Positions 1-55,817 of a DNA stretch of 64,000 nt are shown here, piece after piece. Made by a program: the position numbers and the translations under genes. The number at the start of each line of letters is the position of its first letter. Position 1 is the first letter of the stretch. Under the pieces are notes generated by a model. That model made no database searches and had not been told where the DNA came from. It saw only the letters and a list, made by a program, of their open reading frames with translations. The DNA is from an uncultured Clostridia bacterium (GTDB lineage Bacteria; Bacillota; Clostridia; TANB77; CAG-508): NCBI GenBank assembly GCA_944388935.1, contig CALXKK010000005.1:6383-70382 (forward strand). The letters run 5' to 3'.

Positions 1-311
1 AGGCAAGACCTTATTTAATAAAAAGCGAAGATGAAAAATCTTTATTTGTAAATATAAATGGAAAAAGATTAACTAGACAAGGATTTTGGAAAATAGTTAA
101 ATTTTATAAAGAACAAGCTCATATAGAAAAAGATATTACTCCACATGTATTAAGACATTCTTTTGCAACACATTTATTACAAAATGGAGCAGATTTAAAG
201 GCAATACAAGTAATGTTAGGACATTCAGATATTTCTTCAACTCAAGTATATATGCAATTCCAAGATGAAGGTTTAAAGAATATATACAAAAAAGCACATC
301 CAAGAGCATAA
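1..311 (+). CDS. xerD: Tyrosine site-specific recombinase XerD, C-terminal part (5' end lies outside the window; reading frame starts at nt 3)
   Basis: The translation ...GKRLTRQGFWKIVKFYKEQAHIEKDITPHVLRHSFATHLLQNGADLKAIQVMLGHSDISSTQVYMQ... carries the RHSFAT and LGH..IS.TQ.Y catalytic motifs of Xer-type tyrosine recombinases. Stop codon TAA at 309-311. Confidence 0.85.
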   Translation, partial: ARPYLIKSEDEKSLFVNINGKRLTRQGFWKIVKFYKEQAHIEKDITPHVLRHSFATHLLQNGADLKAIQVMLGHSDISSTQVYMQFQDEGLKNIYKKAHPRA

Positions 312-5932: not shown

Positions 5933-6015
5933 GCCGATGTGGCGGAATTGGCAGACGCACCAGACTCAAAATCTGGCGGGAAACCATGTGGGTTCGAGTC
6001 CCACCATCGGTACCA
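5933..6015 (+). tRNA. tRNA-Leu, anticodon CAA, class II with long variable arm and encoded CCA
   Basis: Acceptor stem GCCGATG/CATCGGT. Anticodon stem CCAGA/TCTGG with loop CTCAAAA. T-arm GTGGG-TTCGAGT-CCCAC. Long variable arm and 3' CCA present. Confidence 0.85.
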
Positions 6016-14575: not shown

Positions 14576-14717
14576 GCTTAACTACAATTATTTCATTAAA
14601 AATTGGTCCCCCTTGACATTCGTCAAGGACCATCCACCAATTTTTATGAAATTAATTGTTAGTAATGCAAAGTTCTAACAAAAGGCATTAAAAAATGTAC
14701 AATGCTTAACTACAATT
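14576..14717. repeat. 14-bp direct repeats (GCTTAACTACAATT, at 14576 and 14704) flanking a 48-nt extended hairpin (14598-14645)
   Basis: Exact 14-mer repeated 128 bp apart. Between the copies lies AAAATTGG-TCCCCCTTGAC-attc-GTCAAGG-ACCATCCA-CCAATTTT. Confidence 0.5.
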
Positions 14718-15718: not shown

Positions 15719-16990
15719 ATGAAGAAAAGAGAAAAGAAAGAATTAATGTGGAGAAAATTGGATAATTCAGCAAAAATATTCCCTTTATCATCTAGCAGAA
15801 AATATAGCAGTGTTTTTAGAATATCTGCTGTTATGAAAGAAAAAGTTGTTCCAAAATTTTTGGAAAAGGCGGTTAATAACGCGCTAAATAAATTTAATTT
15901 CTTTAAAGTTAGGTTAAAAAAAGGATTTTTCTGGTATTATTTTGAATACAATGATAAGAAAATAGTAATAGAAGAGGAAAAGGATTATCCTTGTAAATAC
16001 ATAGATCCAAATACAAATAATGACTATCTTTTTAAAGTGACATATTTTGATGAAAAAATTAATATTGATATTTTTCATTCACTTACAGATGGAAATAGTG
16101 CAATACAATTTTTTAAAGAAATTGTATATCAATATATAGAAATTGCATATGCAAAAGATTTTAAAAACGCAGTAAGAACAGATAGAAAATTTGATTTTAA
16201 TATAGAAGACAGCTATTTAAAAAATTATAATAAGAAAGCTAAAAATACAGTAAAAAGTAAAAAGGCATATATTTTAAAGGGAAGAAAAATACCTTTTGAT
16301 GCAGTTAAAGCTACACATGAAATTTTAGATCTAAAAAAATTAAAAGAGATAACAAAGCAAAAAGGTGTTACAATGACACAATATTTAACTGCTGTATTAA
16401 TAAAAGCTATATATTTAGGAAATATGAAACAAATGAAAAACAATAGACCAATAAAAGTTTGTGTACCAGTAAATTTGAAAAAATATTATAAATCCAAAAC
16501 ATTAAGTAATTTCTTTTCTTATATAACTGTTAGTGCAGATGGAGACGAAATAGATTTTAATAATTTAGACGATATATTAAAATTAGTAAAGAATGACTTT
16601 GAAAACTTATTAAAACCGGAAGAAATAATGAAGACAATGTCTTTAAATGTTAAATTAGGAAATAATTTCTTTATAAGGGTAATTCCCCTATTTCTAAAGC
16701 AAATATTTGTAAGATTAAGTTATCTAGAAATTAGAAAATATACAACGACAACATTTTCAAACATTGGTAGAATTGGTATTATAGCAGAATACCAAAAATA
16801 CATAGATCAATTTTTATTTTTAATTGCTCCAGAAAGAGTAGAAAAAATTAAATGTTCAACATGTTCATATGAAGATAAAATGTTTTTTACTTTTACATCT
16901 GTATTAATGAAAACAGATGTAGAAAAAGAGTTTAAAGCAATTTTAGAAGAACAGGGAATTCATGTTGAAATAGAAAGTAATGGTGTTTAA
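15719..16990 (+). CDS. Condensation-domain/WS-DGAT-like acyltransferase (alcohol acetyltransferase-like), HxxxDG motif
   Basis: FHSLTDG matches the HHxxxDG catalytic motif of WS/DGAT and PapA-type acyltransferases. 423 aa. Only 11 nt separate it from the upstream esterase gene. Confidence 0.55.
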   Translation: MKKREKKELMWRKLDNSAKIFPLSSSRKYSSVFRISAVMKEKVVPKFLEKAVNNALNKFNFFKVRLKKGFFWYYFEYNDKKIVIEEEKDYPCKYIDPNTNNDYLFKVTYFDEKINIDIFHSLTDGNSAIQFFKEIVYQYIEIAYAKDFKNAVRTDRKFDFNIEDSYLKNYNKKAKNTVKSKKAYILKGRKIPFDAVKATHEILDLKKLKEITKQKGVTMTQYLTAVLIKAIYLGNMKQMKNNRPIKVCVPVNLKKYYKSKTLSNFFSYITVSADGDEIDFNNLDDILKLVKNDFENLLKPEEIMKTMSLNVKLGNNFFIRVIPLFLKQIFVRLSYLEIRKYTTTTFSNIGRIGIIAEYQKYIDQFLFLIAPERVEKIKCSTCSYEDKMFFTFTSVLMKTDVEKEFKAILEEQGIHVEIESNGV

Positions 16991-16991
16991 T

Positions 16992-17555
16992 ATGTTATAT
17001 CCAAAATTAGATAATATAAAAAGAAATAATATAATTTTAATTTCATCCATAGCAATATCAATTATAGTAATAGATATTTTATTACTTATTAATCTACTTG
17101 TAGATAAAACAAATCATTGGTCACTACTATGTGTTGCAGGAATAATATATGTATATGGTACAATTATCTATTCAAGAAAAAGAAATGTAAATATAGCTTC
17201 TAATGTATTTGTGCAATGTTTGTTAGTTTCTTTATTAATATTGGCAATAGATTATTTTATAGGATATAGTGGGTGGTCCATAAATATTGCAATTCCAATA
17301 GTAATTATAGTAGCAAATTCCACTCTTATGATTTTAACTATTGTAAGTAGAAAAAGATATATGAGATATGCAATGTACCATGTGCTAACTTTTATATTTA
17401 GTATGATTCAACTTATGTTGTTACTTTTTGGGAAGTTGGACAATAAAGTATTAACGATTGTAGCAAGTGGGATAGCGGGACTTTCTTTAGTCTTAACAAT
17501 TATATTGTGTGGAAGAGCAATGTGGGAAGAAACCAAGAAAAGATTACACATGTGA
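16992..17555 (+). CDS. Small integral membrane protein (4 predicted TM helices), overlapping and co-transcribed with the acyltransferase
   Basis: Hydrophobic segments ILISSIAISIIVIDILLLINLL, LLCVAGIIYVYGTIIY, LLVSLLILAIDYFIGY and VLTIVASGIAGLSLVLTIIL. Start overlaps the upstream stop. Confidence 0.55.
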   Translation: MLYPKLDNIKRNNIILISSIAISIIVIDILLLINLLVDKTNHWSLLCVAGIIYVYGTIIYSRKRNVNIASNVFVQCLLVSLLILAIDYFIGYSGWSINIAIPIVIIVANSTLMILTIVSRKRYMRYAMYHVLTFIFSMIQLMLLLFGKLDNKVLTIVASGIAGLSLVLTIILCGRAMWEETKKRLHM

Positions 17556-17585
17556 ACTTTGGGGACGGACCTTAAAAGTTCAAAT
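17553..17585 (+). repeat. Copy A of a conserved 24-nt element GGGACGGACCTTAAAAGTTCAAAT, embedded in a hairpin TGAACTTT/AAAGTTCA, starting at the stop codon of the upstream gene
   Basis: Identical 24-mer at 55794-55817. Related to the GGGACNGTCC terminal inverted repeats at 22264-22407. Confidence 0.7.
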
Positions 17586-20036: not shown

Positions 20037-21524
20037 ATGGATAATAATGTTAATTATGAAGAAGACATAAACAAACTAATGAAAATTAGAAGAGAAAAGT
20101 TAGATGAATTAAGAAAAGAAGGAAAAGATCCATTTGAAATAACAAAATATGATAGAACAGAAACTGCAGGACAAATTAAAGCAAATTATGATGAATACGA
20201 GCAAAAAGATGTATCTGTAGCAGGTAGAATTATTGCAAAGAGAATTATGGGTAAGGCTTCATTCTGTACTATACAAGATAGCGATGAAAAAATCCAAAGT
20301 TATGTAAGTATAAACGATTTAGGAGAAGAAAGTTATAAAGAATTTAAAACTTATGACATTGGAGATATCATTGGAATAAAAGGTTTTGTATTTAAAACAA
20401 GAACTGGAGAAATATCTGTTCACGCAAAAGAAATAACATTACTATCTAAATCTTTAAGACCATTACCAGAAAAATTCCATGGCTTAAAAGATGTTGATTT
20501 AAGATACAGACAAAGATATGTAGATTTAATAATGAATCCAGAAGTAAAAGAAACATTTATTAAAAGAACTCAAATAATAAATGAAATAAGAAATATATTA
20601 AATGAAAAAGGATATTTAGAGGTTGAAACACCAATATTAAATACAATATCAGGAGGAGCAACAGCAAGACCATTTATAACACATCACAATACTTTAGATA
20701 TAGATATGTATTTAAGAATAGCAACAGAATTAAACTTAAAAAGACTTATAGTTGGTGGATACGATAAAGTTTACGAAATAGGAAGAATATTTAGAAATGA
20801 AGGTATGGATATAAGACACAACCCAGAATTTACTTCAATAGAATTCTATGCAGCATATCAAAATTATCATGATATGATGGATATTACAGAAGAAATATTC
20901 CAAAAATGTGCTATGAAAGTTTGTGGAACAACTAAGATTACATATCAAGGAACAGAAATTGAGTTAGGTGGAAAATGGAAAAGAATTAGTATGATTGACA
21001 GTATAAAAGAAGCAACAGGTGTTGATTTCAATACTATTAATTCAGACGAAGAAGCAGTGGCATTAGCTAAAGAAAGAAATCTAGAAATTCCAAAAGGAAA
21101 AGAAACAAGAGGAAATGTTATTAGTATATTCTTCGATGAATATGTAGAAAAAACATTAGTACAACCTACATTTATCTATGATTATCCAATAGAAATATCA
21201 CCACTTGCTAAAAAATGTAAAGAAGATCCTCGTTTAACACAAAGATTTGAAGTATTTATAGATGGACGTGAATATGGAAATGCATTCTCAGAGTTAAACG
21301 ACCCAATGGATCAATATGAAAGATTTAAAGAAGAAATAAGAGCAAGAGAAAATGGTGATGACGAAGCAGGAATGATGGATGAGGATTATATTAATGCTCT
21401 AGAATATGGAATGCCACCTACAGGAGGGGAAGGAATAGGAATAGATAGATTAGTAATGTTACTTACAGATGCTGCATCAATAAGAGATGTATTATTCTTC
21501 CCAACAATGAAACCATTAAATTAA
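20037..21524 (+). CDS. lysS: Lysyl-tRNA synthetase (class II)
   Basis: 495 aa with class II motifs FRNEGMD..HNPEFT..EFY and [15 protein letters not shown]. Promoter TTTACA-17-TATAAT upstream. Confidence 0.95.
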
Positions 21525-21540: not shown

Positions 21541-22266
21541 ATGTTTTATTTTCCAGGAGGAAGTAGCTATTTATATATAATATTATTAATTATGGTAATT
21601 ACTAATATTATGACTGGGGGAGTAAGTTTATTAGGCATACTATTGAGTTTGCCGGGAGTTTTAATTGCTATAACTTTTCACGAATATGCGCATGCTTTAG
21701 CAGCGGTAAAATTAGGTGATGAAACTCCTAGAATGCAAGGAAGACTTAGCCTAAATCCTTTATCACATTTAGATCCAATTGGTATTATAATGCTTATATT
21801 TGCACATATTGGTTGGGGTAAACCTGTAGAGATAAATCCTAGAAATTTTAAAGGAAGAATATCTACTACTGCTGCTGAGGCGATAGTCTCAATAGCGGGA
21901 CCACTTATGAATTTTATATTGGCAATTGTATTTTCTATAATACTGGCAGCGCTTACAAAATTCGTTCCAGCCATATGGGCTACAGCTCAGGGAGTAATAG
22001 CAACAATCTTAGCAGATATTATTATTGTTAATATAGGATTGGGAGTATTTAATTTAATACCATTACCACCATTAGATGGATCAAAAGTATTAGCATATTT
22101 TTTACCAGTAAATGCAAGAAGATGGTTTTATGAACATGAAAATATATTTTATATAGCATTTATAATAATTTGGCTAACGCCAATTGCATCAAGAATCACT
22201 TCACCAATAATAAATGGAATATTACAATTCTTCTTAAATATAAGTTTTAAGATATTTGGATTATAG
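21541..22266 (+). CDS. Site-2 protease family (peptidase M50) membrane metalloprotease
   Basis: HEYAHAL (HExxH) motif in a TM segment. Polytopic membrane protein. Confidence 0.8.
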   Translation: MFYFPGGSSYLYIILLIMVITNIMTGGVSLLGILLSLPGVLIAITFHEYAHALAAVKLGDETPRMQGRLSLNPLSHLDPIGIIMLIFAHIGWGKPVEINPRNFKGRISTTAAEAIVSIAGPLMNFILAIVFSIILAALTKFVPAIWATAQGVIATILADIIIVNIGLGVFNLIPLPPLDGSKVLAYFLPVNARRWFYEHENIFYIAFIIIWLTPIASRITSPIINGILQFFLNISFKIFGL

Positions 22267-22407
22267 GGATTGGGGGACTGTCCAAAAATCCCGGTTTTAT
22301 CCGGGATTTTTGGGCAGTCCTTTTCTGTGTACTTAATATTTTTTGTTGTGTAAGGACTGCTCTTTTTTCCATAAACAGGGAAAAAAGGACCGTCCCTGAA
22401 TCCCTAC
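22264..22407. mobile_element. MITE-like 144-bp element with about 20-bp terminal inverted repeats (TAGGGATTGGGGGACTGTCC / GGACCGTCCCTGAATCCCTA) and internal near-perfect 20-bp hairpin
   Basis: Left end 22264-22283. Right end 22387-22407, whose reverse complement reads TAGGGATTCAGGGACGGTCC. Internal hairpin 22275-22320 (GGACTGTCCAAAAATCCCGG / CCGGGATTTTTGGGCAGTCC) followed by a T-run also serves as the protease-gene terminator. Second internal hairpin 22354-22395. Confidence 0.5.
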
Positions 22408-22475
22408 AAAGTTTAAATCCCTTTACTTATAAGTAAAAAAATGTTATACTTTTAAGCGAATAAAAGGAGTAAAAA

Positions 22476-23465
22476 ATGAAAGATATAATAATTTTAGGAA
22501 TAGAATCTAGTTGTGACGAAACTTCTGTAGCTGTTGTAAAAAATGGTAGAGAAGTTTTATCTAATGTAATAAATACACAAATAAGTATTCATGAGTTATA
22601 TGGTGGAGTTGTACCAGAGATAGCTTCAAGAAATCATGTACAAAATATTTCTCCTGTAATGAAAGAAGCAATAAAAGAAGCTAATATAAAAATAGAAGAT
22701 GTAGATGCAATAGCTTGCACATATGGACCAGGATTAGTTGGAGCCTTATTAGTTGGAGTGTCATACGCCAAGGCTTTAAGCTATGCTGCAAATAAACCAC
22801 TAATTGGTGTAAATCATATTCAAGGTCATATAGCTGCAAACTATATAACTTATAAAGATTTAAAACCACCATTTTTAACTTTACTAATATCTGGTGGAAA
22901 TACACAATTGGTATTAGTAAAGGATTATACAGAATTCGAGATATTGGGCAAAACCAAAGATGATGCAGTTGGAGAAGCTTTTGATAAAATAGCAAGAGTA
23001 ATAGGACTTGGATATCCAGGGGGACCAAAGATGGATAAGCTTGCACAGGAAGGAACTCCAAATATAGAGTTACCAAAAGTTCATGTTGATGGCTTAAATT
23101 TTAGCTTTAGTGGACTTAAAACTGCAATAATTAATTTGCATCATAAAACTCCTGATATAAATAAAGCAGATTTGGCAGCAAGTTTTGAAAAAGATGTAGC
23201 AGAAATTTTATTAGAGAATACAAAAAAAGCTGTTAAACAGACTAATATAAGAAAAATAGCTTTAGCAGGTGGTGTATCTGCAAACAGCTATATAAGAAAG
23301 GCATTTAAAGAATTAGAAGAAAAAGAACAAATACAAGTATATTATCCAGAACTTAAATTATGCACAGATAATGCTGCAATGATAGCATCTGCGGGTTATT
23401 ATAATTATTTAAAAGGCAATTTTTCAGATTTAAAATTAAATGCTGTACCAAACTTAAAATTATAA
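22476..23465 (+). CDS. tsaD: tRNA N6-adenosine threonylcarbamoyltransferase TsaD
   Basis: [21 protein letters not shown]... and GVSAN motifs. Length of 329 aa is typical. Confidence 0.9.
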
Positions 23466-33965: not shown

Positions 33966-35105
33966 TTAATTTGCTAAGTTTTCTTTTGATATTACTTCAT
34001 TTTTATGGTTTTTTCCATTAAAGAATAAATTATATATAATAACTCCAAATCCTAGAATAGATATGAATAATGTTATTATAATTCCAATATAAGGTATTAA
34101 TTGTAAAGCTCCAATTACAACAGCAATTAATATTGCAAGTAAATATTCTAATGGCATTTTAGAGAATTTTTTATTATTATAAATTCTTCTAGCTAAAACT
34201 GATGCTAATATGTAAGGTGAAATTCCAATTAAAGCTACATATATCATTAGAAGTAATAATCCTATAGTTAAACCTATTTGAGCAGCAATTAATATAACTG
34301 ATAAGATTGGTATAGCAATAAATGCAATTAAACCAGTTAAAAATACTTTACCAAAATGATGTGCTAGGCAAGAAGAAGATTTTTCTAATCCTTCTTCTAA
34401 GAAGAATCTGTAAAGTAAATATACTAAACTTGCTGCAAAAATACTATTAATAATACCAATTATAACATCTAAGAAATTAGTGAATTTATTGTTTGTTGCA
34501 GGTGAAATGTAATTGCTTTCTCCACTAACAACTCCAGAAGGAATTTGCATTTCTGTTTCGGTAGAATATGTTAGGTTACCAGAAACAGAACCTTGTGAAG
34601 AATCAGAAGAAATAACAAAGTCTGTTGCAGAAATATAAGCATTTCTTCCTATGGTTCCTAATAAAGTTGTTTTATTAGTTATTGCGTATAAATCTTTATA
34701 AGTTCCATGACTCATTGGAATAGTTAATTCATTACAAGCAACATATAGTGAACTAGAAAATGTATTAAAAGTTACATTCTTTGCTACTATATATGTACTT
34801 CCATCTACATAAGAAGAATCTTCAAAAGTAACATCACCAGTAGAACATATAAATAAGTTGCCTTTAACTTCTCCAGATATTGTTATATTTTTTCCGAAAA
34901 TATAAACATTTCCATCTACAATTTGAGACAAATTAACATCTTCGCCATATAAATATGCGTCATCTTTTACAACTGTAGTTGTATCAGAAGAATCTGTTGC
35001 TGTAGTATTTTGCGTTTCGTTTGTATCTGCAGCAAAACAAATTGTAGAAATTGATAGGATAATAACTAGAAACATAGTTATTATAATATTTCTTAATTTT
35101 TTCAT
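33966..35105 (-). CDS. Hypothetical secreted beta-helix (bactofilin/polymer-forming-like) domain protein with C-terminal 4-TM anchor
   Basis: Signal peptide. Thr-rich linker. Repetitive G.V.I.G.V.G motifs. Four C-terminal hydrophobic helices. Confidence 0.5.
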   Translation of the reverse strand: MKKLRNIIITMFLVIILSISTICFAADTNETQNTTATDSSDTTTVVKDDAYLYGEDVNLSQIVDGNVYIFGKNITISGEVKGNLFICSTGDVTFEDSSYVDGSTYIVAKNVTFNTFSSSLYVACNELTIPMSHGTYKDLYAITNKTTLLGTIGRNAYISATDFVISSDSSQGSVSGNLTYSTETEMQIPSGVVSGESNYISPATNNKFTNFLDVIIGIINSIFAASLVYLLYRFFLEEGLEKSSSCLAHHFGKVFLTGLIAFIAIPILSVILIAAQIGLTIGLLLLMIYVALIGISPYILASVLARRIYNNKKFSKMPLEYLLAILIAVVIGALQLIPYIGIIITLFISILGFGVIIYNLFFNGKNHKNEVISKENLAN

Positions 35106-35172
35106 TTGTAATACCTCCTATAAAATACTCTAATCAAAATATATAGTATACGTCTTTTTTTGTCAATATAAA

Positions 35173-35814
35173 TCAGTTCTTATGTTCAGATTTATACTTT
35201 TTACAAAATTTTTTTAGTGTACAATTTTCACAATTAGGATTTCTAGCCATACAAGTATTTCTTCCATGCCATACAAATAGATGATTAACATCTTTTAAAT
35301 ATTCTTTTGGAATAATTTTTAATAAATCTTGTTCTATTTTTGCAGGGTCTTTTTCTTTAGATAATCCAAGTCTATTAGAAATTCTTTTTGCATGTGTGTC
35401 AACAGCAATTCCAGTTGCAATTCCAAAAACCTCTAATAAAATTACATTAGCACTTTTTCTACCAATTCCAGGTAGTTTAATAAGTTCATCCATAGTGTTT
35501 GGTACAACACCATTATAATCTTTTAAAATTTTATTTGCACAAGCGCGTGCATTTTTTGCTTTATTTTTATAAAAACCACAGGGATGAATTATTTCTTCTA
35601 ATTCATTTATGTCACAATTTGCAAATGCTTCGATTGTTGGGTATTTTTGGAATAATGCTGGTGTAGTTAAATTTACTCTTTCATCGGTACATTGAGCAGA
35701 TAGCATTACAGCGATAACTAATTGAAAAGGAGTTTTAAAATCTAAGCTACATGTTGCATCTGGATAAGTTTTCTTTAAAGTTTCTACTAATTCTATAACA
35801 TCTTTTTTGTTCAT
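35173..35814 (-). CDS. nth: Endonuclease III (DNA glycosylase/AP lyase, HhH-GPD with 4Fe-4S cluster)
   Basis: HhH motif LPGIGRKSANVIL. C-x6-C-x2-C-x5-C cluster CMARNPNCENCTLKKFC. Confidence 0.9.
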   Translation of the reverse strand: MNKKDVIELVETLKKTYPDATCSLDFKTPFQLVIAVMLSAQCTDERVNLTTPALFQKYPTIEAFANCDINELEEIIHPCGFYKNKAKNARACANKILKDYNGVVPNTMDELIKLPGIGRKSANVILLEVFGIATGIAVDTHAKRISNRLGLSKEKDPAKIEQDLLKIIPKEYLKDVNHLFVWHGRNTCMARNPNCENCTLKKFCKKYKSEHKN

Positions 35815-35921
35815 ACATTACCTCCTATTTTGGAAATATTATATCATAATAAGATATCAACATAAAGTAATCACAGTAATAATTATTTTCTCATATTATA
35901 TAAAAAAGGAGGTAATAATTT

Positions 35922-36071
35922 ATGTGCAAAATTTTAAAAAAGACTTTAGCGGTAATATTGATAGGTTTGGGAATTGGAATACTATTAGTATTGTTACTTC
36001 CTTTTGCTGGATGGCTTTTTGTAATAGGTGTTGCTATTATTATAGTTGGAATAATTTGGCTTAGTAACTAG
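35922..36071 (+). CDS. Small hydrophobic membrane protein (49 aa), below the ORF-track size cut-off
   Basis: AAGGAGG RBS 9 nt upstream of ATG. MCKILKKTLAVILIGLGIGILLVLLLPFAGWLFVIGVAIIIVGIIWLSN gives two predicted TM helices. Confidence 0.45.
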   Translation: MCKILKKTLAVILIGLGIGILLVLLLPFAGWLFVIGVAIIIVGIIWLSN

Positions 36072-42791: not shown

Positions 42792-44039
42792 ATGAAAAAG
42801 CCAGAATTATTAGCACCAGCAGGTTCATACGAAAAGGCAAAAACAGCATTTAGATATGGAGCAGATGCTGTATATTGTGGTACATCTGCTCTTTCTTTAA
42901 GAACAAGAGCAGAAATGAATGATGAAGCATTAGCGAAAACTATTGAGTATGCCCATAGTCTAGGAAAAAGGGTCCATGTTGCACTTAATATATTTGCATG
43001 GGATACAAATTATGATGAAATAAAAAAACAAGCAAAAATGTTACAGGACATGAAAGCAGATGGTATCATTGTTGCAGATGGTGGAGTTGTAGAAACTGTA
43101 AAAAAATATGCACCAAATGTGGATATACATATTAGTACTCAAGCAAATGTAGTAAGCTTAGAAACAGCTAAATTTTGGTATAAAAATGGTGCAAAAAGAG
43201 TAATTTTAGCAAGAGAATTAAATAAAGAACAAATAAAATATATAATTCAAAATAAACCACAGGATTTAGAAGTAGAAATGTTTGCACATGGTGCAATATG
43301 TTTTGGATATTCTGGAAGATGTTTCTTAAGTGATTTTCTAGCTTGTAGAAGTGCAAATCTAGGTGATTGTGCACAGAGTTGTAGATGGGCATATAATTTA
43401 TATGCAGAAGAGACTAACAATCCTGGAAACTTAATGCCAATAGAAACAGATGACAAGGGAACATATATCTTTTCATCTAAAGATTTATGCTTAATACACG
43501 AAATTCCAGAAATAGTTCAAATGGGTGTGGATAGCCTAAAGATTGAAGGAAGATTAAAAACAGAATATTATTTGGCTACAGTAATAAATACATATAGAAC
43601 TGCAATAGATGATTACATAAAAGACCCTGAAAATTATAATGCAGAAAAATATATGGAAGAATTAGAAAAAACAAAAACAAGAGGTTTAACAACATTTTAT
43701 TTTAATGATAGAAACAATAGAGATTTCCAAGAATATGAAGGAAAACAATATAATCCAAATTTTGAGTTTGGAGGAAAAGTAGCAGAAACAGTGGATGGAA
43801 AAACAACTGTAGAAATTAAAAATAAATTATCTGTTGGTGACGAAATGGAAATTATAATTCCAGGAAAAATAGAAGTAGTAAAATTTACTATAGATAAGTT
43901 ATGGGATTATGATACAGATGAAGAGATTGAAACAGTTAACCCGGGAGTAAAAGACCAAAAGGTAAAAATGACTTTACCAATAAAAGTAGAAACAGGATGG
44001 GTATTAAGAAGAAAAAAGAACATTAACAGAACCAGATAA
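42792..44039 (+). CDS. Peptidase U32 family protein (collagenase-like)
   Basis: MKKPELLAPAGSYEKAKTAFRYGADAVYCG. C-terminal Cys cluster. GGAGG RBS before ATG 42792. Confidence 0.85.
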   Translation: MKKPELLAPAGSYEKAKTAFRYGADAVYCGTSALSLRTRAEMNDEALAKTIEYAHSLGKRVHVALNIFAWDTNYDEIKKQAKMLQDMKADGIIVADGGVVETVKKYAPNVDIHISTQANVVSLETAKFWYKNGAKRVILARELNKEQIKYIIQNKPQDLEVEMFAHGAICFGYSGRCFLSDFLACRSANLGDCAQSCRWAYNLYAEETNNPGNLMPIETDDKGTYIFSSKDLCLIHEIPEIVQMGVDSLKIEGRLKTEYYLATVINTYRTAIDDYIKDPENYNAEKYMEELEKTKTRGLTTFYFNDRNNRDFQEYEGKQYNPNFEFGGKVAETVDGKTTVEIKNKLSVGDEMEIIIPGKIEVVKFTIDKLWDYDTDEEIETVNPGVKDQKVKMTLPIKVETGWVLRRKKNINRTR

Positions 44040-44070
44040 ACAGTCATCAGCTGATGATGAAGCTAGATAA

Positions 44071-44100
44071 AATAACCATATCTTTAAAGGTATGGTTATT
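44071..44100. terminator. Bidirectional terminator hairpin between convergent genes
   Basis: AATAACCATA-tctttaaagg-TATGGTTATT followed by TTTT. Confidence 0.6.
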
Positions 44101-45422: not shown

Positions 45423-45986
45423 ATGAAAAAAGTTGCTGTTATGATTGCAGATGGAAGTGAAGAAATAGAAGCTCTTACTGTAGTTGATGTAATGAGAAGA
45501 GCAAATATACATTGTGATATTGTAAGTGTTAATGGCAGAGAAATTACAAGTTCTCATAATGTAGAAATTCTTGCTGATAAAGTAATTGATGAAAGCATAA
45601 AGGATTATGATATGATTGTATTACCAGGTGGATTACCAGGAGCATACAATTTAGCAGAAAATAAATTATTAATAGAAACTTTACAAGAATTTAGTAAAGA
45701 TAGTCATAAATATATTGGTGCAATTTGTGCATCACCAGCAATTGTATTATCTAAAGCAAACATAGAAGAGGGAAAGCTAATTACTTCTTATCCAGGAAAA
45801 GGTTTTGAAGATTTACTAAAAAAAGCAGATTATTCTGAAAATTTAGTAGAAGTTGATGGAAATTTAATAACTAGTAGAGGACCAGCAACAGCAATGTTAT
45901 TTGCATTTAAATTATTAGAAGTTTTAGGACATAATCCAAAGGATGTTAGTGATGGAATGCTTTGGAATTTATTGGAGGAAAAATAA
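45423..45986 (+). CDS. DJ-1/PfpI family protein (YajL/ThiJ-like)
   Basis: Nucleophile elbow AICASP. 187 aa. Confidence 0.85.
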   Translation: MKKVAVMIADGSEEIEALTVVDVMRRANIHCDIVSVNGREITSSHNVEILADKVIDESIKDYDMIVLPGGLPGAYNLAENKLLIETLQEFSKDSHKYIGAICASPAIVLSKANIEEGKLITSYPGKGFEDLLKKADYSENLVEVDGNLITSRGPATAMLFAFKLLEVLGHNPKDVSDGMLWNLLEEK

Positions 45987-47110: not shown

Positions 47111-47399
47111 ACATATACCTCCCTAAATAACACTCTATGAAAAGTATATGTAAAAAGGGGCTTTTCTGTGCCTGGACCATTGAAATTTAAATATTTACAC
47201 ATAATTACTATAATTTTATCATAAAATTTAAATAATTACAAATAATAAAGTTATATAAACGAATTTAAATAAATAGCATATAATTAAGTATGAACGAGAT
47301 AAACTTAAAAAAACACAAAAAATGCACAAAATTGATATTGAAATAAAATTAATTATGTGTTAATATACTTATAAATTAAATAAACGACAAACAAAAACT

Positions 47400-47600
47400 T
47401 CCCTGCATAGTGCGTGTAGACTGGAATTTTAGAACCAACAAATTTTAAAAGGGAGTCCGCCTTTAGGTGTGGCGTGCAAGCTTACACTTTAATTAGTAGT
47501 AAGAAGCCCAGGAGCATTTAACAAGACACCCACCTACGCGAGTAGGCTCTTAAAATTTCTAAACATCTTACGGCTAAGGCGGGGTAAGTTTTTTTATATG
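47400..47600 (+). ncRNA. Candidate structured non-coding RNA (GC-rich, about 45-50% GC against 28% background), family unassigned
   Basis: Local GC spike. GNRA hairpin CCTAC-GCGA-GTAGG. Long-range complement CCGCCTT (47463) / AAGGCGG (47582). Ends ...GGCGGGGTAAGTTTTTTT. No ORF with an RBS. Lies directly upstream of prmC. Confidence 0.3.
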
Positions 47601-54574: not shown

Positions 54575-54629
54575 AGTTTAGTGTTGGAGGGTAAAACCTC
54601 CAACATTTAAACGCTAATTGGAGGATATA

Positions 54630-55784
54630 ATGGCAGAAAAAAGAGATTATTATGAAGTTTTAGGAGTTAATAAAAATGCAACAGATGATGAACTAAAAAA
54701 AGCCTATAGAAAATTAGCCAAAAAATATCATCCTGATGCAAATCCAAATAATAGAAAAGAAGCAGAAGAAAAATTTAAAGAATTAAATGAAGCATACGAA
54801 ACTCTTTCTGATCCACAAAAAAGAAAAATGTATGATCAATTTGGCTTTAATGGTCCACAAGGATTCGGAGGCCAAGGTGCAGGTCAAGGAGGATATTATT
54901 CTTACAGTACTAATGGATTTGATGGATTTGGTAATTTTGGAGATTTTGGCGATATATTTAGTTCATTCTTTTCTGGATTTGGTGGTTCTTCAGGCAGAAG
55001 TAATAGGAATGGACCTAAAAGAGGTAGAGATTTAAGACATGATATAGAGATTACTTTTGAAGAAGCATATTCAGGCATTAAGAAAGAATTCTTTATAAAT
55101 AGAAATGAAAAATGTACAACTTGTAATGGAACAGGTGCAAAACCAGGAACAAGTCCAATAACATGTCCTAATTGCCATGGAACAGGTCAAGTTACACAAG
55201 TTCAAAATACAATTTTAGGACAAATGCAAACTACTAGAACTTGTTCTGAATGTCATGGAACTGGTCAAATTATAAAAGAACCATGTTCAACATGTAGAGG
55301 AAAAGGAACTGTAAGAAAACAAGCCAAAGTTACAATAAATATTCCAGCAGGAATAGACGATAACCAAACTCTAATCTTAAAGAAAGAAGGAGAGCCAGGT
55401 GAAAGAGGCGGAGAAAACGGAGATATTTATGTAACAGTACATCTAAAGAGACACAGTATCTTTACAAGGGATGGAAATAATGTGTTATGCAATATTCCTA
55501 TCACAATGACACAGGCAACACTTGGTGCAGAATTAGAAATCCCAATGGTAGATGGCGAAAAAGTTAAATATAAAATACCAGAAGGAACACAAACAGGAAC
55601 AAGATTTAATATACGTAATAAAGGATTTAAATCTTTAAACGGAAATTGGCAAGGAGATTACATCTTTACAGTTAATGTACAAACTCCAAAGAAATTAACA
55701 AAAGAACAAAGAGACTTATTTACACAATTAGCAAAAACTATGAACGAGCAACCTCCAGTAAAGAAAAGAGGTTTATTTGGATAG
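54630..55784 (+). CDS. dnaJ: Molecular chaperone DnaJ (Hsp40), type I with Gly/Phe-rich region and four CxxCxGxG repeats
   Basis: J-domain HPD motif (KYHPDAN). Zinc motifs [24 protein letters not shown] and CSTCRGKG. Confidence 0.95.
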
Positions 55785-55817
55785 TGAACACGAGGGACGG
55801 ACCTTAAAAGTTCAAAT
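55785..55817 (+). repeat. Copy B of the conserved 24-nt element GGGACGGACCTTAAAAGTTCAAAT, beginning 1 nt after the dnaJ stop codon
   Basis: Exact 24-nt identity with 17562-17585. Local stem TGAAC/GTTCA. Confidence 0.7.

Follow-up and report, generated by a model that had tools for sequence, protein, structure and literature searches.

What occupies the spacer between the M50 site-2 protease gene and tsaD in an uncultured Clostridia bacterium: one small transposon, or several repeats lying side by side? The window, i.e., the whole stretch of DNA that was analysed, comprises 64,000 nt of this bacterium; coordinates are positions within the window unless they follow the number of one of the loci fetched for comparison (L004 and so on). 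An earlier note had described positions 22264-22407 as a 144-bp miniature inverted-repeat transposable element (MITE) with 20-bp terminal inverted repeats (TIRs) that doubles as a terminator, and had named a lineage-specific structured repeat family resembling repetitive extragenic palindromes (REPs) or bacterial interspersed mosaic elements (BIMEs) as an alternative. We assign the segment 22264-22406 with high confidence to the second class, as a BIME-like cluster of a lineage-specific REP-like family. It is also likely, in our judgement, that the units of this REP/BIME-like cluster are moved in trans by a Y1 transposase of the RAYT/TIRYT type, and that they act locally as stop codon and terminator.

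The structure described earlier was for the most part confirmed by direct reading of the sequence. The left end (TAGGGATTGGGGGACTGTCC, 22264-22283) and the reverse complement of the right end (GGACCGTCCCTGAATCCCTA, 22387-22406) agree at 17 of 20 positions, exactly as claimed; the proposed start and structure hold, while the element ends at 22406 and measures 143 nt. An inverted-repeat search extended the outer arms to a 37-nt inverted repeat with 73% complementarity and returned an inner hairpin (22275-22294 and 22301-22320; 20 nt, 95% complementary, 6-nt loop). The terminator scan lists this inner hairpin with 20 pairs, 11 of them G-C, and the tail TTTTCTGTGT, in agreement with the near-perfect 20-bp stem followed by TTTTCT that had been reported. 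Folding of 22264-22330 as DNA gave −22.5 kcal/mol (z = −8.8). As RNA, the 166-nt region reached −76.1 kcal/mol against a shuffle mean of −40.6 kcal/mol (z = −8.4, none of 200 shuffles as good), and the opposite strand of this region gave z = −8.9. No open reading frame (ORF) of at least 50 aa in the ORF list of the window overlaps the element, which bears out its lack of coding capacity, and for the element no Rfam family exceeded its gathering cut-off, either in the scan of the window or in a more permissive one of 22200-22500.

At closer range, the element consists of four copies of a palindrome of about 31 nt in alternating orientation (→ ← → ←), two full copies at the ends that face each other and two decayed copies between them (Table 1). 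The apparent 20-bp TIRs are the outer halves of the oppositely oriented units 1 and 4. The 20-bp hairpin corresponds to unit 1 paired with unit 2 and the second hairpin to unit 3 paired with unit 4. In doublets at L042, L054, L069 and L093, the inverted member is again the variant represented by unit 4. The cluster is flanked by GGATTA and CAAAG. With up to one mismatch, GGGACNGTCC occurs six times in the window compared to 0.64 expected occurrences, and none of 100 shuffles reached six; each of the six belongs either to the cluster or to one of the sites behind stop codons, 17562 and 55794. The GGGAC-N-G(T/A)CC core is indeed common to the cluster and to the post-stop elements at 17.5 kb and 55.8 kb.

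The unit is dispersed over related genomes. We scanned one genome per GTDB species for exact matches to the pattern GGGACNGTCCNAAAATCCC; the listed matches are lower bounds. The pattern was found in at least 114 stretches, 108 of which stem from 26 assemblies related to Clostridium sp. CAG:354, and six of the 114 listed stretches are isolated chance matches inside genes of unrelated lineages. The 26 assemblies are labelled as uncultured Clostridia or Clostridium, including Clostridium sp. CAG:354, UMGS1570, HGM13682 and many BRZ_ bins; one among them is labelled as uncultured Bacilli bacterium and one as Bacillota bacterium. A single metagenome-assembled genome (MAG), BRZ_PA__bin34, holds at least 32 exact-core copies in at least 28 stretches. 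The consensus core had zero matches in IMG/VR, searched for carriage by phages.

The family consensus is a palindrome of about 31 nt, TAGGGATTTGGGGACGGTCCTAAAATCCCTA, or (a)TAGGGATTtGGGGACGGTCCTAAAATCCCTA(t) in register; the position frequencies give aTAGGGATTtGGGGACGGTCCTAAAATCCCTat. Its apex, GGGGAC-N-G(T/A)CC, is G+C-rich and conserved, the arms that close it are rich in A/T, and the 10 nt at the centre of the near-perfect palindrome are invariant. There are two types of arm that can replace each other, type I (GGGATTT/AAAATCCC) and type II (TGAACTTT/AAAGTTCA). Both types have the apex GGGACGG(T/A)CC in common; three consecutive arm positions differ on each side, and complementarity is kept. 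Type II arms with the canonical core (TTGAACTTTAGGGACGGTCCTTAAAGTTCAA) are also found in related MAGs.

As single-stranded DNA, the 31-nt consensus folds with −7.9 kcal/mol (z = −4.0) and the type II unit with −9.4 kcal/mol (z = −5.9). Among 75 distinct units, 81% of the cells are paired compared to 76% in shuffles, and the covariation score is 0.195 versus 0.108 for shuffles, none of 500 of which reached this value; the score is best at slide 0. The pairs 7-31, 8-30 and 9-29 show 9-11 double changes each, counts that overstate the number of independent covariation events because many cells descend from one arm-type switch. In type II units three arm pairs switch together from GC to AU or from AU to CG. 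The outermost pairs vary independently, with AU in 41, UA in 9 and CG in 5 cases for pair 5-33. Pairing extends to the ends of the unit, where the 5′ (A)TAG pairs with the 3′ CTA(T) and outer pairs co-vary. The bases flanking the unit also co-vary, as inverted complements (TA..TA, CA..TG, TC..GA) and not as direct repeats, and TA flanks the commonest form of the unit. A folded single strand, DNA or RNA, thus appears to be the conserved feature.

To describe the placement of the units we counted profile matches in the listed stretches, leaving out the six chance stretches for spacers, stop codons and T runs. Non-coding positions were found for 135 of 140 matches. By type of spacer, 91 units lie in tandem, 25 in convergent and 7 in divergent spacers, compared to 539, 55 and 56 of 650 background spacers; convergent spacers are over-represented and divergent ones under-represented. 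In tandem spacers, 70 of 91 units are closer to the 3′ end of the upstream gene, and 69 units are co-oriented with transcription versus 22 that are not. Stop codons of called genes (at least 100 aa) that fall within a unit are TAG in 36 cases and TAA in 2; they sit at the 5′ TAG or at an internal T(T)TAG that directly precedes the core. The latter provides the stop in at least 14 units, in which the left arm GGGATT is translated as the last two codons (among them L015 10718-10747 and L017 7171-7200). A run of at least five T within 8 nt follows 49 of 117 units (42%), whereas about 12% are expected by a binomial estimate from base composition.

At the locus studied here, the M50 gene takes its stop codon from unit 1, whose first three bases are the TAG at 22264-22266. 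The hairpin of units 1 and 2 together with its T tract is a plausible predicted terminator that would end and protect the lysS-M50 transcript, and the earlier suggestion of a terminator function agrees with the result of the terminator scan.

Pairs of units are frequent, and larger groups are not. An inverted partner within 120 nt was found for 31 of the 140 profile matches. Of 118 units with the exact core, 22 face an inverted one (convergent) at a distance of up to 150 nt, including the Ia/Ib arrangement seen for units 1 and 4. Strict profile matches elsewhere in the listed stretches form 125 singlets and 14 doublets, and no cluster of three or more units. The spacers of the doublets measure 7-60 nt, and their sequence differs between non-orthologous doublets. 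Since doublet spacers are not conserved between loci, it looks as if the single unit is copied and not the doublet. Among the fetched loci, the complete composite turned up at the orthologous position in the same species and nowhere else; there, the identical element is present in seven of seven contigs. Three short contigs of this species end within the hairpin loops of the element (L004, 1960; L005, 1752; L007, 919), and the inverted repeats therefore probably break short-read assemblies.

Comparison with relatives supports gain and loss of units at this spacer. The cluster is absent in relatives with 92%, 90% and 83% M50 identity, in which the spacers measure 112-126 nt (193 nt in L015 and L017) versus 209 nt in the window. 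The 92% and 90% relatives have a spacer of 112-113 nt with one short degenerate unit (GGGATTGGGGGAAGCCTAATCCC) placed against the −35 box; its unusual left arm is in common with unit 1 of the window, and its right arm is orthologous to the orphan remnant TAAATCCC. For the 83% relative, a plain hairpin is found in L014 and L016 and a different spacer of 193 nt in L015 and L017, which opens with a unit whose left arm forms the last codons GGG ATT TAG. L014 and L015 are 98.4% identical over 19.8 kb, yet only L015 has a unit in the spacer, and homology breaks exactly at the stop codon. The promoter-like stretch of tsaD is untouched by the cluster and invariant across eight loci with M50 protein identities of 83-100%. 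In a relative with 85% M50 identity (L012 10714-11655, L013 3973-4914) the M50-tsaD spacer holds an extra ORF of 158 aa with no Pfam match on record. A degenerate unit (TAGGAACGTTCCTAGATTCC) follows the stop codon in these two loci, and its right arm complements the left arm within the coding sequence (GGAATTTA), not the canonical arm.

A second site gives a clean comparison of filled and empty states. At the junction 45973/45974 the window is empty, and relatives carry one 33-nt unit (L075) or two units (L055, L089, L113). Alignment of the empty window with the filled L075 revealed no target-site duplication. Two genes overlap at this site in the window; in the relatives, the TAG of the unit shortens the upstream ORF. 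A further difference was observed at 44017-44096, where the window lacks a segment of about 1.1 kb that is present in L022, L055, L075, L089 and L113, along with both directly oriented units that bound it. In L055 (3303-4421) this segment encodes an ORF of 324 aa, and the upstream gene of the window is a few codons longer. The pattern suggests a unit-mediated deletion or insertion.

Which enzyme could move the units? A motif screen of all fetched loci picked out two ORFs that adjoin units, one pair of loci being L018 and L019; they match Pfam Y1_Tnp (PF01797) above its cut-off (35 bits compared to 23). For all eight proteins of this group the best NCBIfam match is REP_Tyr_transpos (NF047646). 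The homologues comprise 243-256 aa and have a conserved C-terminal block; the helix-turn-helix (HTH) families PF08279 and PF13412 are recorded on several of them, and one carries the JGI name RayT. In 23 sequences N59, H60, H62, Y120, N124, P125 and V126 are invariant, which represent the HUH motif and the tyrosine motif YIxNNPV. The best PDB match of the family profile is TnpA-REP of E. coli (4ER8, E = 3e-5), compared to E = 0.6 for ISDra2 TnpA; a search of PDB with the single protein P0139 gave no match.

In one clade of these genes, with two clusters that are 62-63% identical to the query, eight contigs have ileS on one side of the gene and an ABC-transporter operon on the other. Inverted repeats of 44-46 nt (GGGGACRTGYCAAA-hairpin-AAAGGGACASNCC) that begin with GGGGACRTG lie on both sides of this gene. 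Such repeats were located at L131 2699-2742 and 3892-3935, L135 2757 and 4036, and L139 3118; the downstream copy in L135 is interrupted by extra sequence. The arms of their internal hairpin differ by species and stay complementary (GTTTCA/TGAAAC, TGGACA/TGTCCA, TGAACA/TGTTCA), and one copy was found away from any transposase gene (L036, 3523, − strand). A second clade of RAYT-like genes, many of them truncated, is found close to the abundant unit. In L019 and L141 a type I unit is present only upstream, at a distance of about 200 nt, and in L140 a split gene (206-976) has a unit at 75-103 (+) on one side and, on the other, inverted units at 1204-1234 and 1643-1675. Close relatives of the L019 transposase of BRZ_PA__bin34 are truncated proteins on short contigs.

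We consider movement by a TIRYT/RAYT-like Y1 transposase to be the best-supported mechanism and moderately probable. Copies of single units would reach new extragenic sites, most probably in the form of single-stranded hairpins. A Y1 (HUH) tyrosine transposase of the RAYT/TIRYT type, encoded elsewhere in the genome, would be the likely enzyme, and the inverted repeats flanking its own gene would carry the same GGGGAC box as the units. Units would land preferentially at or just after stop codons and beside existing units, so that clusters may grow stepwise. Mobilisation in trans is plausible, because the window holds no transposase gene and RAYT-like genes are present in related genomes.

The family resembles the REP, BIME and REPIN repeats of E. 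coli, Pseudomonas and Stenotrophomonas in being lineage-specific and in consisting of imperfect palindromes of 20-40 nt with dozens of extragenic copies, seen here in a related MAG. As for REPs and BIMEs, the copies lie mostly 3′ of genes, in unidirectional or convergent spacers, and are often grouped as inverted pairs or clusters. In REP/RAYT systems the Y1 (HUH) gene is single-copy, syntenic and flanked by inverted repeats; here, inverted repeats flank a gene that shares its neighbourhood in eight contigs. Unlike those systems, the host is an uncultured Clostridia lineage of low G+C content (27%). The hairpin apex is conserved and the arms exist in two interchangeable types, in contrast to REPs, and unlike in REPINs singlets appear to be copied and the doublet spacer is not conserved. 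The proteins also differ from RAYTs by their C-terminal HTH tail.

Homologues of RAYTs that are flanked by long inverted repeats instead of REPs were named TIRYTs or TIRtrons by Di Nocera in 2013, and many of the associated repeats have a GGGGWSAS motif and form moderately abundant families of singles, dimers and groups; Firmicutes and Clostridia are unmentioned in this survey (PMC3733652). Quentin in 2018 listed TIRYTs as TnpA-Y1 subclass 2.1, with a median length of 238 aa, a C-terminal HTH and no REP-like sequence near the genes (PMC6006769). According to Bertels, Group 1 RAYTs, with which TIRYTs are also equated, occur in Clostridia too, and abundant REPs are tied to Groups 2 and 3 only (PMC5581495). 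The proteins described here are like TIRYTs in their length of about 250 aa, the HTH tail and the position of the gene within long TIRs that begin with a GGGGWSAS-like box (GGGGACRTG here). Compared with GGGGWSAS, the GGGGAC(R)(N) box agrees at 6-8 of 8 positions over gene-flanking repeats and abundant units together: TIRs of the ileS-linked gene starting with GGGGACGTG or GGGGACATG match at 6-7 positions and units with GGGGACAG at all eight. The related repeats are moderately abundant and occur as singles, dimers or groups, as in TIRYT families. Unlike subclass 2.1, whose genes have no REP-like sequences nearby, a compact 31-nt hairpin family with this box is abundant here, and the tyrosine motif is YIxNNPV versus YIELNP or Y[IV]HLNP; the likeness is one of features.

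Miniatures of the IS200/IS605 family, with IS608 and ISDra2 as examples, share the HUH-Y1 enzyme, hairpin ends recognised as single strands, insertion with no target-site duplication and a bias in orientation with respect to replication or transcription. Different from IS200/IS605, no cargo is enclosed by distinct left and right ends, no tnpB partner was seen here, and the profile fits TnpA-REP much more closely than ISDra2 TnpA. Other structured repeats of small size lie between genes in Firmicutes and Neisseria and can provide terminators or stabilise the 3′ ends of transcripts: BOX and RUP of Streptococcus pneumoniae, bcr1 of Bacillus cereus and the Correia elements. These are modular or TIR-bearing elements of 100-150 bp with target duplications and a link to DDE enzymes, and their sequences are unrelated to the 31-nt palindrome.

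Several observations weigh against the proposed transposition of a REP-like family. The eight proteins score 58-74 bits, below the NF047646 equivalog cut-off of 80. The intact syntenic clade is flanked by a related but different repeat and not by the abundant 31-nt unit, and the unit-flanked clade (L019, L140, L141) looks truncated or split. A tblastn search with two RAYT-like proteins found no transposase gene in the 64-kb window, and no RAYT-like gene was tied to the species of the window. The profile and core searches found only this cluster and two type II units in the 64 kb, and an exact search of JGI metagenomes for the window variant GGGACTGTCCAAAAATCCC returned five matches, all in contigs of 44-50% G+C and attributable to chance. 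Classical REPs have an unpaired GTAG or CGTC tag, which is missing here because the palindrome runs to the ends (TAG...CTA). We therefore infer the role of the transposase, since the repeat of the intact clade is not identical and none of the genes is assigned to the species of the window.

The 36:2 bias of TAG over TAA makes an IS608-style insertion 3′ of a pre-existing TAG attractive. The empty site in the window keeps no TAG, and this speaks against such an insertion and against the wider proposal as well.

The near-perfect palindrome with its invariant 10-nt centre and copies that are highly conserved across species would also suit a dispersed site to which a host protein binds (a dimeric regulator, a nucleoid protein or a component of restriction-modification or defence, for example), kept by selection and spread by recombination instead of a dedicated transposase. 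REPs of E. coli bind IHF, gyrase and Pol I (PMC6006769), and the abundant unit is not identical to the repeats that flank the intact RAYT-like gene. Binding to a duplex needs no arms that change freely and yet stay complementary, however, and a folded single strand is favoured by the existence of two arm types and by the variability of the outer pairs. Selection for binding also offers no mechanism for precise gain at gene ends, and RAYT-like genes are found beside or between units. We regard a binding site as the sole explanation as improbable, although it is compatible with movement of the same units by a transposase.

A classical MITE, in which the whole segment of 143-144 bp with 20-bp TIRs is moved by cut-and-paste of a DDE enzyme and the flanking TA suggests the IS630/Tc1 type, would account for the ends matching at 17 of 20 positions, the TA that flanks the commonest form of the unit, the non-coding nature of the segment and its absence from this spacer in close relatives. 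The ends are, however, explained by two inverted 31-nt units, which also stand alone at more than 100 sites, and the composite was seen at this locus of one species only, with doublet spacers not conserved. Duplication of a TA target was rejected on the basis of the empty-site alignment and the covariation of the flanks, which are inverted complements. Because of the missing target-site duplication, the unit structure and the copy evidence, the view of the earlier note that one 144-bp MITE is served by a transposase with TAGGGATT ends was abandoned, and we give it a very low probability. Its alternative, a lineage-specific family of REP/BIME-like structured repeats, was borne out by extragenic units with palindromic covariation in at least 108 stretches of 26 related assemblies.

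Similarly remote is an ordinary terminator region that evolved in place under selection with no mobility. A strong G+C-rich hairpin with a T tract does follow the stop codon immediately, and the spacers of relatives also hold some hairpin. A nearly unchanged 31-nt sequence at more than 100 unrelated spacers in 26 assemblies is hard to reconcile with local evolution, as is the finding that 58% of the units lack a T tract. The region is not a single-copy plain terminator kept in all relatives: the cluster is absent or different in close ones and polymorphic between strains that are 98.4% identical. Least probable is a cis-regulatory leader or small RNA gene for tsaD or the M50 operon, which the very stable predicted fold and the sub-threshold Rfam matches to sbrA (29 bits versus 45) and the rimP leader (27 versus 47) might suggest, since no Rfam family reached its gathering score, the conserved tsaD promoter is 3′ of the cluster, and relatives in which both genes and the promoter are retained lack the cluster.

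Table 1. Positions of the repeat units, neighbouring genes and related sites in the window.
Feature	Position	Strand	Evidence
Unit 1, type Ia, full, TAGGGATTGGGGGACTGTCCAAAAATCCCGG	22264-22294	+	nhmmer with family profile, E = 6.7e-8
Unit 2, inverted, left arm truncated, CCGGGATTTTTGGGCAGTCCTTTTC on + strand; pairs with unit 1	22301-22325	−	reverse complement GAAAAGGACTGCCCAAAAATCCCGG aligned by eye to core and right arm
Unit 3, degenerate, core and T-rich right arm only, AAGGACTGCTCTTTTTTCCATA; pairs with unit 4 via CTTTTTTCC / GGAAAAAAG	22352-22373	+	sequence reading
Unit 4, type Ib, full, T-rich right arm, reverse complement TAGGGATTCAGGGACGGTCCTTTTTTCCC	22378-22406	−	nhmmer, E = 0.0037
Orphan right-arm remnant TAAATCCC, abuts −35 box of tsaD	22414-22421	+	alignment with L008 (GGGATTGGGGGAAGCCTAATCCC/TTTACTTA)
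Hairpin from units 1 and 2, then TTTTCT; likely intrinsic terminator and 3′ stabiliser of lysS-M50 transcript	22275-22326	+	terminator scan; predicted function
Type II unit TGAACTTTGGGGACGGACCTTAAAAGTTCA; first three bases form the TGA stop of ORF 16980-17555	17553-17582	+	DNA fold, z = −4.2
Type II unit, decayed left arm, TGAACACGAGGGACGGACCTTAAAAGTTCA, directly after TAG stop of ORF 54618-55784	55785-55814	+	folds no better than shuffles
Empty site TTTATT/GGAGG, junction 45973/45974	45964-45978	+	alignment; BLAST break points
M50 (site-2) protease gene	21541-22266	+	ORF list; Pfam PF02163, E = 4e-15
tsaD promoter-like site, TTTACT-17 nt-TATACT, 3′ of cluster	22422-22450	+	promoter scan
tsaD gene	22476-23465	+	Pfam PF00814, E = 2e-102

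The window has a G+C content of about 27% and a strongly positive GC skew, and nearly all genes are located on the + strand. On this strand lysS (20037-21524) is followed by the M50 gene, the 209-nt spacer and tsaD. The only 2-kb bin with negative GC and AT skew, 34001-36000, suggests minus-strand genes or foreign DNA. Two RNA genes were identified by Rfam, a tRNA of 80 nt at 5933-6012 (+, RF00005, 59.5 bits) and the 6S RNA (SsrS) at 47397-47589 (+, RF00013, 98 bits). In two relatives a repeat unit adjoins the 6S RNA (L077 7089-7117 and L101 3444-3472, beside the homologue of window 47399-47600). The spacer at 14576-14717 holds an unrelated structure, a G+C-rich hairpin (CCTTGAC ATTC GTCAAGG) within a longer stem (AAAAATTGG...CCAATTTTT), with z = −6.5 for the RNA fold. 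A direct repeat of 14 nt (GCTTAACTACAATT) lies on either side of it, at 14576-14589 and at 14704-14717; the pattern of this hairpin was present in none of 146 fetched loci, and this spacer could be a different small element.

Current understanding is not overturned by these data; they represent a well-supported extension of a known phenomenon. Repeats of the REP/RAYT type are already known, and the host lineage, the conservation of the apex and the exchangeable arms set this family apart. As a tentative proposal, which we put forward with less than even confidence, small A+T-rich gut Clostridia may harbour an undescribed REP-type system in which an HTH-tailed TIRYT-like Y1 protein maintains 31-nt hairpins with a GGGGWSAS box at the apex and exchangeable arms, which would land preferentially on stop codons and donate stops and terminators to tightly packed genes. 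TIRYTs, i.e., subclass 2.1, have no known substrate or function, and the 31-nt hairpin with its GGGGAC apex is a testable candidate substrate. The units set gene ends by supplying TAG stops and by shortening or lengthening C-termini between strains, and gene calls in these MAGs are affected as a consequence. They may also break metagenome assemblies and, being polymorphic between strains that are 98% identical, are usable as strain markers. If the proposed transposition is true, uncultured low-G+C gut Firmicutes would join Proteobacteria and Cyanobacteria as hosts of REP-RAYT biology.

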